Positions 44,467-59,903 of a DNA stretch of 64,000 bases are shown piece after piece (positions within the stretch are counted from its first letter, which is position 1; every line of letters begins with the position of its first letter). Below the pieces are notes generated by a model. The model was not told the origin of the DNA and made no database searches. It saw only the letters and a list, made by a program, of their open reading frames with translations. Origin of the DNA: an uncultured Candidatus Saccharibacteria bacterium (GTDB lineage: Bacteria; Patescibacteriota; Saccharimonadia; Saccharimonadales; Saccharimonadaceae); NCBI GenBank assembly GCA_938033875.1, contig CALHKG010000015.1:16393-80392 (forward strand), written 5' to 3'. A program made the translations under genes and the position numbers.

Positions 44467-45804
44467 ATGACTGAAGCGCTAGTCAATGATATCATTGTAC
44501 GTCCGGCAAGGGCGGACGATTTCGATTTCGTCGCGGATCTTATGATCCGGGCGCTCACACCGTTTTATGACGGTGACCACTACGCACACGCACGGCGTAT
44601 CTTTGATACGCACATGGCAGGCGGTGTTGACCGCGTCGGCCAGTTCTCGGCCGGACAGCACATGTTCATCGCCGAGAGTGATGGGCAACCCGTGGGTGTC
44701 ATTCATGTTGTCAACAAGAAACAGGGGACTGTCAAGATCAGCCCTCTCATTGTTGACACGGCATACCGAGGAAAGATGGGCGTCGGAAGCGTGTTGCTCA
44801 AGCACGCTGAAGATTTCGCCCGCAGCCTCGATGCTCGACAACTGTACTGCACTGTCGCGTCGCCGAACCAGAAGGCGCTTCAGTTCTTCCTCCGGAAGGG
44901 TTTCCTCGTCACTGGCACGGCTCGCAACCACTACAAGATGGGGGTCGATGAGCACATGCTGTACAAGCAGCTCGTTGACGAGGCGGGGTTCGACTCGCCG
45001 AATATCTCTGTGGTTCCGTTTAACGAGAGTCAGCACGCCGACAGCGCGCGAGCTCTCATCCTGTCGCAGACGAGTGACGACTTCGAAGGAGTGGACGACA
45101 GTTGGGTTGACGCCCTTTTCGCTGGCTACCGTCGTATGGAATCTGGCGACGTCAACAACAAGTTCAAGATCATCTTTGTAGCTGAGTGCAACGGTCAGGT
45201 TGTTGGTGTCGCTGGTGTGACCCCGAAGAAGGGGCAGCCTATCAAGCTGATGCCTCTCGTGGCGAAGTCGGAAGCAGCTTTTGAGGCGCTCATTATCGAC
45301 CTTCAAGGGCTGTTGGAGGATTACGGTCGCAAGCTGTACATCCACCTCGTCCCTGAGCCATGGCAGGTCGTCTGTCTCCAGCGTCACGGCTGGAGCCTGG
45401 AGGGCGTGTTCCCGGGAGGGTATGCGCCTGCCAGCGTCGTTCAGCAGTGGGGAATCAGTCTCAACAAGAAAGGAGTGTCTATGCGTAAGATGCGCATCAA
45501 GCGTCCATACTACGACGCAATCATGTCCGGCAAGAAGACTCTCGAGGTGAGAGTCGGCTATAACAGCATCAAGCGGCTGAAGGCTGGTGAGCTGCTACAG
45601 CTCGAGACCGGTCACACATCGGGCGTGGTACGGATCAAGTCGATACGTATTTACCGTAGCTTCGCCGACATGCTGGCGGCTGAGCCGTGGCAGCAGATCG
45701 TGCCGCAGGCAGAGAGCGAGAGGGAGGCTCTCCGTCTCCTTCGTAAGATCTACCCTGGCCACAAGGAGAATCTTGGTGTTCACGTCATCGAGGTTCAAAA
45801 GTAG
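44467..45804 (+). CDS. GNAT-GNAT-ASCH fusion protein, compositionally foreign (high GC)
   Basis: 445 aa. First GNAT has the acetyl-CoA motif YRGKMGVGSVLL. A second GNAT-like domain spans ~190-330. The C-terminal ~105 aa form an ASCH domain (MRIKRPYYDAIMSGKKTLEVRVGY...GELL). Hand counts of 37/60 and 33/60 G+C versus 28/60 in a uvrA line. Long spurious ORFs in other frames are typical of GC-rich DNA. Confidence 0.75.
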   Translation: MTEALVNDIIVRPARADDFDFVADLMIRALTPFYDGDHYAHARRIFDTHMAGGVDRVGQFSAGQHMFIAESDGQPVGVIHVVNKKQGTVKISPLIVDTAYRGKMGVGSVLLKHAEDFARSLDARQLYCTVASPNQKALQFFLRKGFLVTGTARNHYKMGVDEHMLYKQLVDEAGFDSPNISVVPFNESQHADSARALILSQTSDDFEGVDDSWVDALFAGYRRMESGDVNNKFKIIFVAECNGQVVGVAGVTPKKGQPIKLMPLVAKSEAAFEALIIDLQGLLEDYGRKLYIHLVPEPWQVVCLQRHGWSLEGVFPGGYAPASVVQQWGISLNKKGVSMRKMRIKRPYYDAIMSGKKTLEVRVGYNSIKRLKAGELLQLETGHTSGVVRIKSIRIYRSFADMLAAEPWQQIVPQAESEREALRLLRKIYPGHKENLGVHVIEVQK

Positions 45805-55318: not shown

Positions 55319-56341
55319 ATGGCTGTAACGAGAATAGCAATTAACGGCTTCGGGCGAATCGGACGCAATGCGTTTAAGATTGCTAACGAGCGAAGCGACT
55401 TGGAGATTGTCGCGATCAATGATTTGACTGACACGAAAACTTTGGCGTATTTGTTGAAGCATGATAGCAATTACGGTGAGTACGGACGTCAAGTTGATTT
55501 TACGGAAAACGAGCTGATTATTGAGGGTAAGTCGGTTAAGGTGCTGGCTGAGAAAGATCCAGAAAATCTGCCGTGGCGAGATTTGAATATTGATGTGGTG
55601 ATTGAATCGACAGGATTTTTCACTGATAAAGATGGCGCGGGCAAGCACTTAACGGCTGGCGCAAAGCGTGTAGTTATCAGTGGTCCGACGAAGTCTGAGG
55701 GAGTCGATACGATTGTTCTGGGAACTAACGATGACAAGGTAAAAAATGCGACGCCAATCGTATCTAACGCTAGTTGTACGACCAATTCTTTGGGTGCGGT
55801 TATGGCGATTTTGGACGCGGAGTTTGGCGTTGAAAAGTCAATGCTAACGACGGTACATAGTTATACGGCTAGCCAAAAGCTTCAGGATGCGCCATCCAAG
55901 GATCTTAGAGAAGGTCGTAACGCCGCCGAAAACATTGTCCCGACTACGACTGGCGCCGCAATTGCTGTAACTAAAACCTTGCCGCAGCTAACTGGAAAAT
56001 TTGACGGACTTAGTGTGCGCGTACCGACTCCAGTTGTGTCGCTTAGCGACGTGACGGCGCTTCTCAGGGAAGATGTGACTGTCGAGCAGGTAAATGACGC
56101 GTTCAAAAAAGCCGCTCAGAGTAATTTCTATCAAGGCATTTTGGGTGTTTCTGAAGAACCTTTGGTGAGTCGCGACTTCATTGGCAATTCATATTCTGGA
56201 ATTGTCGACCTTCCATTAACGAAGGTAGTTGGCGGTAATTTGATCAAGGTTATGGTCTGGTATGACAATGAATGGGGCTATTCGAACCGGCTGGTTGAAC
56301 TGGTGGCGGATGTGGCGTATTATCTGAAAAAGAGTGAATAA
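55319..56341 (+). CDS. gap: Glyceraldehyde-3-phosphate dehydrogenase
   Basis: 340 aa. INGFGRIGR, active site SNASCTTN, WYDNEWGYS. Confidence 0.96.
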   Translation: MAVTRIAINGFGRIGRNAFKIANERSDLEIVAINDLTDTKTLAYLLKHDSNYGEYGRQVDFTENELIIEGKSVKVLAEKDPENLPWRDLNIDVVIESTGFFTDKDGAGKHLTAGAKRVVISGPTKSEGVDTIVLGTNDDKVKNATPIVSNASCTTNSLGAVMAILDAEFGVEKSMLTTVHSYTASQKLQDAPSKDLREGRNAAENIVPTTTGAAIAVTKTLPQLTGKFDGLSVRVPTPVVSLSDVTALLREDVTVEQVNDAFKKAAQSNFYQGILGVSEEPLVSRDFIGNSYSGIVDLPLTKVVGGNLIKVMVWYDNEWGYSNRLVELVADVAYYLKKSE

Positions 56342-56365
56342 GGACATCTTCCAAAAAGGAAATAA

Positions 56366-56388
56366 CCCCGCACCGTGACAGTGCGGGG
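56366..56388 (-). terminator. Intrinsic terminator of cassette B
   Basis: CCCCGCAC-7 nt-GTGCGGGG. On the minus strand it is followed by TTATTTCCTTTTT. Confidence 0.7.
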
Positions 56389-56451
56389 ACGCCAGATCTT
56401 GACGATTTTACAGACATTTATTGTCTCGCGCCTCTGCTGGCGCGGAGCATC

Positions 56452-56784
56452 TCAGCCGCGGCGTCGACGAATCTTGTCGACGATCACCATCGCGATGGCG
56501 ATTACGAGGAAGACGATCGCCATATAGGCGGGAGCGTCATACACTATCGTCGATAGTGATGATAATCCGGGGTAATACGGGTAATACGGTACCCCCGATG
56601 CCCTCATCTCTTCCAGTTCCATCCACGCACTCAGGATAAGTGCGAGGTGGATTGCGGCGAAGTCGGCTGCCGCGAACATGCTTGCTGCGACCAGTCGGTG
56701 ACGGTACAGCGCTGTGACTGAGGTCACAAACATACCGGCGATCAGAGTGATAGCTACGACTACAGCCAAAGCAGTGGTGGGCAT
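56452..56784 (-). CDS. Hypothetical small membrane protein (cassette B, high GC)
   Basis: 110 aa, 3 TM, YYPYYP loop, RRRRG tail. 34/60 G+C in line 56461-56520. Own promoter, ~100-nt structured leader, AGGAGG SD and terminator. Confidence 0.5.
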   Translation of the reverse strand: MPTTALAVVVAITLIAGMFVTSVTALYRHRLVAASMFAAADFAAIHLALILSAWMELEEMRASGVPYYPYYPGLSSLSTIVYDAPAYMAIVFLVIAIAMVIVDKIRRRRG

Positions 56785-56891
56785 GATTTATCCTCCTAGG
56801 GAAGATCTTGAGGTGCGGCCTTTCAAAACCGCGACCTCAACCGGGGTGAACTCCCCGGGAGTTGCTTTTCACGGTTTGAAAAGCTAATATA

Positions 56892-56920
56892 TATATATCA
56901 TACAAGCCACGAAATGTCAA
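56892..56920 (-). promoter_or_regulatory. Promoter of cassette B (TTGACA-N17-TATATA)
   Basis: Reverse complement reads TTGACA (56920-56915), 17-nt spacer, TATATA (56897-56892). Followed by 5' hairpin GCTTTTC-aaaccgt-GAAAAGC (56864-56884). Confidence 0.55.
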
Positions 56921-56973
56921 TACTTTTTGTCAAATAGCTACATCCTACCTCTGATAAAATACCTAACTTTCCC

Positions 56974-57002
56974 TTGCAAAAAACATCGAAAACGCTTATA
57001 CT
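56974..57002 (+). promoter_or_regulatory. Promoter of the rpiB operon (TTGCAA-N17-TATACT), ATG 6 nt downstream
   Basis: TTGCAA 56974-56979, TATACT 56997-57002, ATG 57009. Confidence 0.55.
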
Positions 57003-57008
57003 AAAATT

Positions 57009-57461
57009 ATGAAAATCTACCTCGGATCTGACCATCGTGGCTTTATGTTGAAGGAAAAAGTTTTTGCCTATTTGGTTAAGAATGGCTATGACGTGCAAGA
57101 CGTTGGCGGTGTAGAATTAAATCCTGATGACGATTTTCCGCAATTTGCGCAGGCGGCGGCGTTGAAGGTCATTGGTGATGATAGCAAGGATCCGCGCGCG
57201 ATATTAATTTGCGGCGGCGGTCAAGGAATGTGTATGGCGGCTAACCGATTCAAAGGAATTCGTGCCAGCGTGATTTGGGATGCGTTTGAGGCAAAAATGA
57301 CGCGCCAAGATAACGACTCGAATGTTCTATGTTTGCCAGCGCGAGTTTTGGAAGACAATGAATCAGCGTGGAAAGGAATTGTGGAAACGTGGCTGAACAC
57401 TCCTTATGCGAATGCTCCGCGATTTAATAGGCGTAATGCGCAGTTGGATGAATTGTCATGA
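57009..57461 (+). CDS. rpiB: Ribose-5-phosphate isomerase B
   Basis: 150 aa. RpiB/LacAB motifs (GSDHRGF, ICGGGQGMCMAANR). Confidence 0.92.
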   Translation: MKIYLGSDHRGFMLKEKVFAYLVKNGYDVQDVGGVELNPDDDFPQFAQAAALKVIGDDSKDPRAILICGGGQGMCMAANRFKGIRASVIWDAFEAKMTRQDNDSNVLCLPARVLEDNESAWKGIVETWLNTPYANAPRFNRRNAQLDELS

Positions 57462-58108
57462 GCAGTTCTGTAATTGCACCAGCAATTTTGGCAGAAAATG
57501 CCGAACAATACAAAGAGCAGGTTGATAAAATAACGGGTTTTGCTGAGCGTGTGCATATTGACATTTCTGATGGCGAATTTGCTCCGACATTGACAGTTGG
57601 CATTCCTGAATTATGGGCACCGGAAGGTTGGACGATTGATATCCATGCGATGGTTAATGATGTTGCTGAGTATGTTCCGAAGTTGATTGCCTTAAGACCG
57701 CACATGATTATTATTCACGCGGAGGCGACGGGAGATGTGAAGACCGCGCTTATGCAGATTCGTCAAGCTGGAATTATGGCGGGATTAGCACTACTAAAGC
57801 CAACGGTTCCGCGAACGGTTGAGGAATTGATAAAAATAGCAGATCATGTGATGATTTTTAGCGGTGAGCTGGGGCGATTTGGCGGAACTGCTAGTCTTAT
57901 GCAGCTGGAAAAAATACGACTTATTAAAGCTATTAATCCTAGTGTTGAAATCGGTTGGGACGGTGGAGTGGCGGTAGATAATGCGTACAGTTTGGTTCAG
58001 GGCGGCGTTAACGTTCTGAACGTTGGCGGTGTTATTCAGAAATCGTCAGATCCGCGCACCATTTTCTCCAGATTGCAACAGGAGATTAATAAAACGAGCG
58101 TGCTTTAA
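57458..58108 (+). CDS. rpe: Ribulose-phosphate 3-epimerase family protein
   Basis: 216 aa. APAILA...HIDISDGEFAP, TIM-barrel pattern, 4-nt overlap with rpiB. Confidence 0.78.
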   Translation: MSSSVIAPAILAENAEQYKEQVDKITGFAERVHIDISDGEFAPTLTVGIPELWAPEGWTIDIHAMVNDVAEYVPKLIALRPHMIIIHAEATGDVKTALMQIRQAGIMAGLALLKPTVPRTVEELIKIADHVMIFSGELGRFGGTASLMQLEKIRLIKAINPSVEIGWDGGVAVDNAYSLVQGGVNVLNVGGVIQKSSDPRTIFSRLQQEINKTSVL

Positions 58109-58944
58109 TGGATATCGACCAAATAGTGAAATTGAAGAGAATATCACAACAATTGCGAAAGTCTGTTATTAGCAAATTATCGGCGGCTGGCTCGGGTCAT
58201 TCGGCTGGCTGTTTGGGGTTTGCTGATGTTATGGCGGTTTTGTATTTTCATGCCATGCAACTAGACCCTGAGAATCCTGATTGGGAAGACCGGGATATTT
58301 TCGTGATGAGCAATGGTCATTATGCGCCACTTTTATATGCCACACTGGCGGAGCGGGGATTTTTCGATAAAAAAGAGTTGGCTAATTTGCGAAAATTTAG
58401 CTCCAAGCTTCAAGGTCATCCGGAACGCGGCAGCTTACCAGGAATTGAAACGACTAGCGGTCCTCTGGGCTGCGGCCTGAGTCAAGCGGCTGGTATGGCA
58501 TACTCATTGCAATATTTGGGTGGCAATTCTGAGCGATTCGTTTACTGCAGTTTGGGTGATGGCGAACTGGATGAAGGGAATATTTGGGAAGCGGCGATGT
58601 TTGCGAAAAAATATAATCTGTCGAATTTGATTGCGATTGTTGATAGAAATAATATTCAGATTGGTGGTGATACGGAAAAGGTGATGCCGCTAGGTGATTT
58701 GGCAGATAAATGGCGAAGTTTTGGCTGGAATGCGCAGGAGATTGACGGGCATGATCATTTGGCGATAATTCAGGCGATTGATAAGGCTAAGAATTCTCGG
58801 CAGTCGAGCGTGATAATCGCGCATACAATTCCTGGTCGTGGCGTTGATTTTATGGAATATGATTACCGTTGGCATGGAAAATCTCCAAACGCCGAGGAGG
58901 CGGAGCGGGCGCTTGCTCAATTGAGTGAAGGAGGTGGCGAATGA
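58108..58944 (+). CDS. tkt: Transketolase, N-terminal (TPP-binding) subunit
   Basis: 278 aa. GSGHSAG, GDGELDEGNIWEA TPP motif. Split-gene form. Confidence 0.9.
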   Translation: MDIDQIVKLKRISQQLRKSVISKLSAAGSGHSAGCLGFADVMAVLYFHAMQLDPENPDWEDRDIFVMSNGHYAPLLYATLAERGFFDKKELANLRKFSSKLQGHPERGSLPGIETTSGPLGCGLSQAAGMAYSLQYLGGNSERFVYCSLGDGELDEGNIWEAAMFAKKYNLSNLIAIVDRNNIQIGGDTEKVMPLGDLADKWRSFGWNAQEIDGHDHLAIIQAIDKAKNSRQSSVIIAHTIPGRGVDFMEYDYRWHGKSPNAEEAERALAQLSEGGGE

Positions 58945-59903
58945 GTTTCTTAATGGAGAATTGGCAGAATTTGGAGCTTGCGGCAATTCGGATGGGTTTC
59001 GGCGAAGGCTTGGTGGATATTGCGAAGAAAAATAATTTGGTGGTGGCGCTGAGTGCGGATTTAATGGAGAGCGTTGGCTTTGGTAAGTTTTATGAGGAAA
59101 TCGGGAAGCCGCGGGCAATTGAAGTTGGCGTGGCGGAACAGAATTTGGTTACTGTGGCGTCTGGGCTGGCGGCTATGGGAAATATTCCGTTTGCAGCTAG
59201 TTATGCGGCGTTTAGTCCGGGTCGCAACTGGGAGCAGATTCGCACGACTATTTGCCTGAACAATCAGCCGGTTAAGTTAGTGGGTTCTCATGCTGGGTTA
59301 AATGTTGGTCCAGATGGTGCGACGCATCAAATGCTGGAAGATATTGCGCTGATGCGAAGTTTACCTAATATGGTGGTTTTGGCGCCCGGTGATGCTAATG
59401 AAGCCAAGCTGATCGCGGCGGCAATGACTGGAGATAAACGCCCGAATTACGTAAGATTGCCAAGAGAAAAAACGGCGTTATTCCTAAATCAATCTACTTT
59501 TGAGATTGGAAAAAGTTATACGTTGAGGCACGGTAAAGATGTTGCCTTGTTTGGAACTGGCGTGATGACTTATCAATTGTTGTTGGCGGCGGAAAAGCTC
59601 GCGAATGAATATGACATTCAGGCGGAAGTAATTCATTTTCCGACGATCAAGCCGCTGGACGAGGACACTGTGCTTGATGCGGCTCAAAAATGCCAAGCCG
59701 TCATTACGGCGGAAGAAGGGCAGATTGCTGGTGGATTTGGCTCAAGCGTGGCGGAAGTTCTTAGTGATAATTTGCCGGTAAAGATGAAGCGAATCGGTGT
59801 TAATGACGCGTTTGGCGAGTCTGGCAAAATGTCTGAATTGTGGCAAAAGCACGGTTTGGATGTCGATTCAATTGTTCGTAGTGTTGTCAATTTTCTCCAG
59901 TGA
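58941..59903 (+). CDS. tkt: Transketolase, C-terminal (pyrimidine-binding) subunit
   Basis: 320 aa. GVAEQNLVTVASGLA, THQMLEDIALMR. 4-nt overlap with the N-terminal subunit. Confidence 0.9.
   Translation: MSFLMENWQNLELAAIRMGFGEGLVDIAKKNNLVVALSADLMESVGFGKFYEEIGKPRAIEVGVAEQNLVTVASGLAAMGNIPFAASYAAFSPGRNWEQIRTTICLNNQPVKLVGSHAGLNVGPDGATHQMLEDIALMRSLPNMVVLAPGDANEAKLIAAAMTGDKRPNYVRLPREKTALFLNQSTFEIGKSYTLRHGKDVALFGTGVMTYQLLLAAEKLANEYDIQAEVIHFPTIKPLDEDTVLDAAQKCQAVITAEEGQIAGGFGSSVAEVLSDNLPVKMKRIGVNDAFGESGKMSELWQKHGLDVDSIVRSVVNFLQ

Follow-up and report, generated by a model that had tools for sequence, protein, structure and literature searches.

The window analysed here is a 64,000-nt stretch from an uncultured Candidatus Saccharibacteria bacterium (contig CALHKG010000015.1, positions 16,393 to 80,392), and all coordinates below are window positions. 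Between gap (55319-56341, plus strand) and rpiB (57009-57461, plus strand) lies one self-contained unit on the minus strand, which we refer to as the cassette. Its parts, in order, are a promoter, a leader of ~100 nt that folds into four hairpins, an open reading frame (ORF) of 110 aa, a structured 3' untranslated region (UTR) of ~100 nt, and an intrinsic terminator. The gap gene is convergent with the cassette; the cassette itself is divergent from rpiB and is not the leader of that gene. A preliminary description of this locus had recognised a high-GC gene for a small membrane protein behind a switch-like leader, and here we consider what that leader may do and why the gene behind it changes from one lineage to the next.

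The promoter can be read directly from the sequence (56892-56920): a TTGACA hexamer (56915-56920), a 17-nt spacer, and a TGA motif with TATATA (56892-56897). It lies exactly where the preliminary description had put it; it was missing from the list produced by our consensus scan because the -10 hexamer has no T at position 6. A second TTGACA box farther upstream (56929-56934), also read from the sequence, is kept alongside the promoter in the leaders of relatives. Judging from the sequence, transcription likely starts at an A near 56885, within a conserved AGCYU motif (AGCUU here). The predicted leader helices are P1 (GCUUUUC/GAAAAGC, 56864-56884), P2 (CCGGGG/CCCCGG, 56841-56858), P3 (56808-56840; 5' arm UUGAGGUCGCGG, 3' arm CCGCACCUCAA) and P4 (AUCUUCC/GGAGGAU, 56790-56806), the last of which buries the core of the Shine-Dalgarno (SD) sequence (56792-56796). 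The leader is non-coding in this locus, since an in-frame TAA lies six bases before the ATG. Translation of the ORF (56452-56784) gives a 110-aa protein with three hydrophobic, putatively transmembrane (TM) segments, as had been proposed. The stop codon and a short 3' box, UGAGAUGC, occupy 56447-56454; the box departs at a single position from the family consensus, UGAGGUGC, itself complementary to GCACCUCA in P3. The 3' UTR is predicted to fold into hairpin T1 (CGCGCC/GGCGCG, 56427-56444), whose 3' arm, GAGGCGCG, is a second SD-like box, and hairpin T3 (CGUCA/UGGCG, 56390-56404), in place of which relatives have CGCGG/CCGCG or GCCGG/CCGGC. Scan and fold agree on the intrinsic terminator (56353-56388); its stem, at 56366-56388 as the preliminary description had it, has 10 pairs, 8 of them G-C, and is followed by a T-rich (in RNA, U-rich) tail.

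The minimum free energy (MFE) structure of the leader is the series of four successive hairpins P1 to P4 (-47.1 kcal/mol). None of 200 shuffled sequences folded as low (z = -4.95), marking the leader as unusually structured. P1, P2 and P3 had been named in the preliminary description, and all three form in the MFE structure at the places given there; P4, the helix that buries the SD, is a fourth that had gone unnamed. For comparison, we folded the 125 nt around the start codon of 286 SD-bearing genes in the 766-kb genome. The cassette has the most stable 5' region of the 286 (-48.4 vs -21.8 +/- 6.6), and its SD core has an unpaired probability of 0.005 at 37 C (99.5% paired in the model), the median being 0.53; only 3 of 294 genes, this ORF among them, have a value equally low or lower. 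Because the 16S rRNA of this genome ends in ...GGAUUACCUCCUUU, the 3' arm of P3 (GCACCUCA) mimics an anti-SD and the 5' arm (UGAGGU) mimics an SD. The CCUC of this helix, suggested earlier as a possible partner of the SD, does form an anti-SD-like box.

P3 is the most conserved element of the leader. Its pattern occurs in 75 of 121 Candidatus Nanosynbacter genomes (46 of the 72 of high quality), nearly always once per genome, as in the genome studied here; the reversed pattern, used as a control, matched 10 genomes. P3 comes in a short form, UGAGGCGCGG-AAMGG-CCGCACCUCA, and a long form with a lengthened stem, which is the form at this locus, and the spacing between the arms is 5 nt in one variant, as against 10 nt in the other. 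Across 12 long-variant leaders, the four-hairpin fold is paired in 98.4% of alignment cells, as against 48-59% when one side is slid; P1 is paired in 100% of cells, and compensatory changes are found in P2 (two pairs) and P4. Across 14 short-variant leaders, compensatory changes affect 6 of the 12 P2 pairs (19 cells), with P3 invariant. P3 and a linker of the leader are invariant across lineages whose gap genes are only ~77% identical, whereas P1 and P2 are wholly unlike between the long and short variants in both sequence and length. We suggest, as the best explanation, that the non-coding parts are the conserved, functional core of the cassette, such that an RNA platform is conserved rather than a gene.

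Outside the genus, the P3 pattern matched 9 of 380 genomes of the family, which is close to the level of the reversed control. Five of these nine matches were inspected: four lie inside high-GC ORFs, and one, locus L063 in another genus, is a true cassette: it has a promoter of the same kind and the hairpin, and its ORF, which is unrelated, encodes a membrane-anchored protein of 152 aa and has a third-position GC content (GC3) of 0.84. Across all GTDB species the pattern also gave chance matches in unrelated high-GC genomes. A covariance model (R1) built from the 14 short-variant leaders matched two of two other genomes of the genus and missed the long variant of this locus; a single weak match in another genus (E = 0.0024) is given no weight here. 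A search of the genome for complements of the leader boxes, allowing up to two mismatches, was too noisy to single out a trans-acting partner.

The preliminary description had also proposed that parts of the leader form mutually exclusive helices. Such folds are predicted, but the best-supported alternative is not the AACUCC/GGAGUU pairing that had been named. That pairing can form, yet it is the least conserved (86% of cells paired, four of its six pairs being broken in some relatives), shows no covariation and appears in no MFE structure. The better candidate is a 16-bp helix (56818-56884) in which the 5' end of the leader (56869-56884) pairs with the 5' arm and loop of P3 (56818-56834), enclosing P2; in 12 relatives it is paired in 96.6% of cells, compared with 36-57% when the partner is slid. 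At transcript lengths of 62-72 nt this alternative helix is the MFE structure (-33.6 to -34.4 kcal/mol), and from 76 nt on P1, P2 and P3 together fold lower. In the full-length mRNA of 530 nt, the two states are 0.4 kcal/mol apart, at -220.4 kcal/mol for the P3 state and -220.0 kcal/mol for the alternative. Short-variant leaders have a counterpart, in which P2 is extended by pairing of CUGCGCUUC, an invariant linker, with the P3 5' arm (97.5% of cells), and this pairing is the MFE structure in 10 of the 19 leaders folded. The invariance of the linker and P3 fits nucleotides that serve two partners, although it is not proof of this.

A third box of the same kind lies at the other end of the mRNA. 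Of 36 cassettes, 32 have the sequence TGAGGTGC, the exact complement of GCACCUCA in P3, with no more than one mismatch, either at the stop codon or in the 7 nt that follow; among background ORFs, 8 of 1029 do. The box persists whichever type of 3' end is present, with any ORF, and when the stop codon lies a few bases upstream; the cassette from another genus has it too, behind its unrelated 152-aa ORF. In full-length MFE folds of nine mRNAs, the 3' arm of P3 is paired with the 3' box in three, and with the last codons of the ORF in a fourth. When the duplex between the leader and the 3' UTR was compared with duplexes formed by shuffled 3' UTRs, 11 of the 16 cassettes tested gave z scores of -2.2 to -5.3; these include five short-leader relatives (z = -3.5 to -5.3; 0-3 of 300 shuffles as good) and three long-leader loci (z = -2.2 to -2.9). 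In three other long-leader loci, as at the present locus, the duplex was no better than with shuffled sequences.

What the conserved flanks enclose differs between lineages. In a DNA search of 30 other Nanosynbacter genomes, two blocks are kept, one comprising gap and the 3' UTR/terminator side and the other comprising the leader, the promoter and the rpiB side; the body of the ORF aligned in one genome only (G222). The ORFs found at this site are 3-TM proteins of 127-140 aa, 38-47% identical to the ORF described here, and lipoproteins of 113-117 aa with an LTGC lipobox, both behind the same leader, as well as a soluble protein of 64 aa behind a different leader with the same promoter and 3' UTR. 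Identity to this locus is 88-98% for the 5' module (71% in locus L007, which has the other leader) and 80-97% for the 3' module, whereas for the ORFs it is 45-56%, the level of unrelated sequences under that scoring. The 5' homology extends through ATG-TCY-ACY and the 3' homology begins at the stop codon, and hence the exchanged piece is the ORF itself. The lipoprotein is lineage-restricted (36 clusters, 67-96% identical) and is coding and under purifying selection (dN/dS 0.16-0.37). Synonymous divergence between the 3-TM alleles is 0.23-1.28 while their gap flanks are 93-96% identical, which suggests that alleles were brought in by recombination and did not diverge in place. In a tree of gap flanks with 26 rows, a long-leader clade that contains all three ORF types stands apart from a short-leader clade. 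Six more distant genomes of the genus have gap and rpiB ~33 nt apart, with no room for a cassette, an arrangement that we label the ancestral state. The short-leader clade has its cassette convergent to gap as well, with rpiB elsewhere, and a third group has a cassette with a 2-TM ORF of 71-95 aa at another site.

The protein encoded at this locus belongs to an orphan family. Its hydrophobic segments span residues ~4-26, 31-54 and 84-103. Comparison with Pfam, NCBIfam, PADLOC and PHROGs gave matches at noise level, the best being COX1 (E = 0.025) and a holin PHROG (E = 0.27). A word-indexed search of 5.8 billion proteins returned solely copies that are 97-100% identical and one fragment, and an exhaustive HMMER search of 1.84 billion representatives returned 14 clusters at E values up to 0.001; the leader is conserved in relatives. 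The family alignment has a common plan of TM1, a basic loop of YRHRL type, TM2 with a nearly invariant His, a variable loop rich in aromatic residues and proline, TM3 and a basic tail. The ESM Atlas model has a pLDDT of 0.69, its structural neighbours carry no family assignment, and all feature scores are <0.9. Pairwise dN/dS among five 3-TM alleles is 0.35-0.73, and the gene is therefore coding yet fast-evolving. Profile comparison gave a probability of 24% for homology with the WLYxP 3-TM family of the other clade, a level that does not establish it, and 0.2% for the 2-TM family. The high GC content noticed in the preliminary description amounts to a compositionally foreign gene: GC is 0.559, as against 0.433 +/- 0.036 for the crude gene set of the genome, and GC3 is 0.640, as against 0.416 +/- 0.060, which ranks second of 705 crude genes with this ORF counted.

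The cassette is represented in RNA libraries. Two metatranscriptomic runs from one study yielded contigs covering 56452-56868 (depth 16.3) and 56593-56865 (depth 5.3), whereas gap and rpiB have zero depth in the same two runs; this fits a cassette transcript that is more abundant than those of its neighbours. The ends of the contigs coincide with borders of the conserved modules, where assembly graphs branch. Both contigs have T rather than C at position 56832 (plus strand), a strain variant that corresponds to G to A in the RNA and, in the model, puts an A-C mismatch in place of one G-C pair of P3.

The unit is best explained as a moron-like, recombination-swappable expression cassette in the Candidatus Nanosynbacter chromosome. 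From its anatomy, its conservation and covariation, the computed alternative folds, the replacement of its ORF and its presence in RNA libraries, we propose that it carries a post-transcriptional switch controlling small exchangeable envelope proteins and made of SD-like and anti-SD-like boxes; we think this proposal somewhat likelier to be right than wrong. The parts of it that we infer are what triggers the switch, what its regulatory output is and what the protein does. At this locus the SD would be locked in P4. Upstream of P4, P3 would pair an SD-like box with an anti-SD-like box, and during transcription it would compete with the earlier-forming helix between the 5' end and its own 5' arm, such that the leader could alternate between two states that differ in the boxes left free. 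In relatives, the third SD-like box, at the stop codon, would pair with the anti-SD-like box and close the mRNA from 5' to 3'. The switch would thereby set the translation of a small envelope protein, the stability of its mRNA, or both. Being conserved, the flanks would also act as homology arms, through which the ORF could be swapped between lineages for unrelated small envelope proteins.

Several observations weigh against this proposal. SD occlusion is not universal: values for the unpaired probability in 36 relatives run from 0.005 to 0.98. Modelling of this locus keeps P4 closed whichever of its two states the leader adopts, and the effect of the toggle here is therefore unexplained; its target may be access by RNases or, as a standby site, the single-stranded stretch beside P4. 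P3 and the greater part of the alternative helix are invariant, and because they show no compensatory changes, their pairing rests on sequence conservation and energy models. The duplex between the leader and the 3' UTR is at chance level in this locus (-13.1 vs -12.2 +/- 2.4; z = -0.35; 103 of 300 shuffles as good), where the 3' box (UGAGAUGC) carries a G-to-A change; in the models, 5'/3' closure is thus a family feature that this window has in weak or eroded form. Resolution of the gap-flank tree is poor within the long-leader clade, and although the maximum-likelihood tree needs at least four or five changes of ORF type, a single change is all that its well-supported branches require. Counts across the loci are not independent, as the loci share ancestry, and the metatranscriptomic contigs cannot show strand, ends or expression level.

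Other explanations account for parts of the same evidence. The hairpins could simply be a passive array of stabilising stem-loops at the 5' end of a recently acquired gene, with neither switching nor regulatory meaning. mRNA 5' hairpins guard against 5' exonucleases in Firmicutes-like systems, and since P3 is invariant, covariation does not prove that it pairs. We nonetheless regard this explanation as unlikely: the sequence invariance of P3 and the linker exceeds what a generic stabiliser would need, the SD is buried, and two alternative folds are kept in relatives. A ligand-binding riboswitch, in which a leader aptamer would let a ligand choose between P3 and the alternative state, would be consistent with several helices and two near-isoenergetic folds, with a linker and hairpin that are invariant across the genus, and with a position in the 5' UTR just ahead of the SD. 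However, no Rfam family matched this leader (nothing reached the gathering score, and at E values up to 10 the one overlapping hit was to an 11-bit snoRNA model), and a scan of six related loci at E up to 1 gave no leader match and one unrelated snoRNA hit elsewhere. In addition, the helices follow one another in a row, neither a multi-helix junction nor a conserved pocket being evident, P1 and P2 are not shared between variants, and the controlled genes are unrelated envelope proteins with no metabolic theme, all of which make a riboswitch distinctly improbable. Least probable of all, in our judgement, is an RNA thermometer, in which heat would melt P4 and free the SD. A short hairpin does bury the SD, but in the model the SD core stays paired, with an unpaired probability of 0.003 at 30 C, 0.007 at 42 C and 0.042 at 60 C, and P4 has G-C pairs, with no sign of a weak U-rich or mismatched design.

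The preliminary description had raised type I toxins as a hypothesis, that is, a system of the hok/sok or tisB kind in which the mRNA of a membrane toxin is silenced and an antisense RNA counteracts it. The product is hydrophobic, and the RNA design has features in common with hok, whose mRNA, in the portion of the published account drawn on here, has tac/fbi, ucb and dcb elements and a metastable fold (PMC9841398): in models, an SD that a complementary box upstream sequesters and a metastable fold that arises while the RNA is being transcribed, and, in relatives, long-distance 5'/3' complementarity. Compared with the same portion of that account, the cassette differs in that no antisense RNA or overlapping leader ORF was found. 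Its product has 110 aa and three TM segments rather than ~50 aa and one; a lipoprotein stands behind the same leader in close relatives, and this interchangeability of the ORF is hard to reconcile with a toxin-specific circuit. No promoter-like site was found on the antisense (plus) strand at 56342-56950 by a consensus scan, which weak or non-sigma-70 promoters could escape, PADLOC, Pfam and NCBIfam gave no match, and the fold-back is not above chance in this locus. Toxicity is not something that sequence can show, and we give the toxin hypothesis very little weight. Equally remote, in our view, is an element that acts at the level of DNA, with inverted repeats of 9-10 bp (CCGCACCTCA in the leader and the matching complement at the stop codon) or the P3 palindrome serving as a recombinase site that inverts or exchanges the ORF, or as a repressor operator. 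Inverted repeats do flank the ORF in 32 of 36 cassettes, and the ORFs are exchanged exactly from start to stop codon. In every locus with a callable ORF, though (36 of 37 loci), the ORF has one and the same orientation after the leader hairpin; no recombinase (integrase or invertase) is found among the ORFs at 53-60 kb; and there is a single copy per genome rather than an array, so that the cassette resembles neither an integron cassette nor an invertible element. The helices include G-U pairs, which hold on just one strand, and the spacing of the P3 arms differs (5 vs 10 nt) as does the length of the stem; for these reasons an RNA structure is favoured over a DNA operator. The metatranscriptome contigs contain no joints, which is weak evidence on this point.

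The switch that we propose, and the cassette around it, can be set beside known systems. Phage morons are reportedly independent promoter-ORF-terminator units, a notion associated with Hendrix and colleagues. Like them, the cassette encloses one short ORF between a promoter of its own and a factor-independent terminator, is inserted between genes that are adjacent in relatives, and has a deviant composition; unlike them, it lies between chromosomal housekeeping genes rather than in a phage, and its conserved part is the non-coding flanks rather than the ORF. In a test for a phage origin, a blastn search of phage records gave no match, and one viral contig contained an unrelated hairpin. In the icaR mRNA of Staphylococcus aureus, an anti-SD in the 3' UTR is said to block the real SD; in the cassette, by contrast, the 3' UTR has an SD-like box, which would capture the anti-SD-like box of the leader. 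As far as the part of the icaR account drawn on here extends, 5'/3'-UTR pairing controls translation, and, as would be the case in the cassette, boxes of SD/anti-SD type in the 3' UTR and 5' UTR pair within one molecule (PMC3868564). The closest described analogue of the UTR pairing, again going by part of the published account, is the Bacillus subtilis hbs mRNA, which likewise has a highly structured 5' UTR and in which pairing of the 5' UTR with the 3' UTR modulates RNase access (Braun, Durand and Condon, 2017; PMC5737220). On the same basis, the cassette differs from hbs in the length of the pairing (8 bp vs 14 bp), in that the pairing is well above chance only in relatives, in that no RNase sites are known for it, and in that its box is an anti-SD mimic that is also paired locally, with the 5' arm of P3.

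A bolder reading, which we offer tentatively and consider possible though on balance doubtful, is that this is a plug-and-play surface-protein locus, whose UTR brackets would serve both as a bistable completion check and as homology arms and would diversify host recognition or phage susceptibility. As a completion check, they would license translation or stability only after the 3' box has been transcribed; as homology arms, they would allow naturally competent epibionts to trade unrelated small envelope proteins at one site. We found no earlier description of the cassette in Rfam scans or in the literature searched, which did not include supplementary files, where transcript maps could lie. 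The regulation of the life cycle of Patescibacteria is essentially unknown, and a 2024 perspective, in the part of it available to us, argues that translational control is likely to be key (PMC11665869). The leader would be among the first native cis-regulatory RNAs proposed for this group and, Nanosynbacter being transformable, the proposal is testable. The locus would also mark a few fast-evolving or exchanged envelope proteins as candidates for strain-specific interactions with host bacteria or phage, and the cassette offers a natural promoter-leader-terminator set for genetic tools.

Around the cassette, a promoter-like site for rpiB (TTGCAA, 17 nt, TATACT; 56974-57009, plus strand) ends 6 nt before the rpiB ATG, and from this spacing rpiB may be leaderless in this genome. 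Where relatives lack the cassette, rpiB directly follows gap and is perhaps co-transcribed with it; the rpiB promoter would then have come with the insert. On the plus strand, at 56841-56884, the complements of P2 and P1 are each trailed by a T-rich run, and that of P2 was listed as terminator-like; read-through from gap would be antisense to the cassette and could stop at these complements.

Elsewhere in the genus, the cassettes at loci L026, L028 (minus strand), L029 and L007 have the same double-TTGACA promoter and 3' UTR with other leaders that lack P3, and encode soluble proteins of 64-76 aa or a 119-aa protein; the modules therefore combine as a mosaic. Upstream of cassettes at the other chromosomal site (L024, positions 1950-2100; L025; L027, minus strand; and L029) is a hairpin of ~110 nt, GCCCACCGAAAAUAG...CUAUUUUC, with a 10-bp closing stem and a U-run; it has no Rfam match and is probably a large terminator of the upstream gene. 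The gene with the highest GC3 in the genome studied here (0.69; GC 0.57) lies at 44467-45804 (plus strand) and encodes a 445-aa protein that combines a GNAT acetyltransferase domain with an ASCH domain at the C terminus; this gene, too, was probably acquired. Transketolase is encoded by two overlapping ORFs at 58108-59903 (plus strand), the N-terminal one of 278 aa and the C-terminal one of 320 aa, a split that is the usual form in such small genomes.

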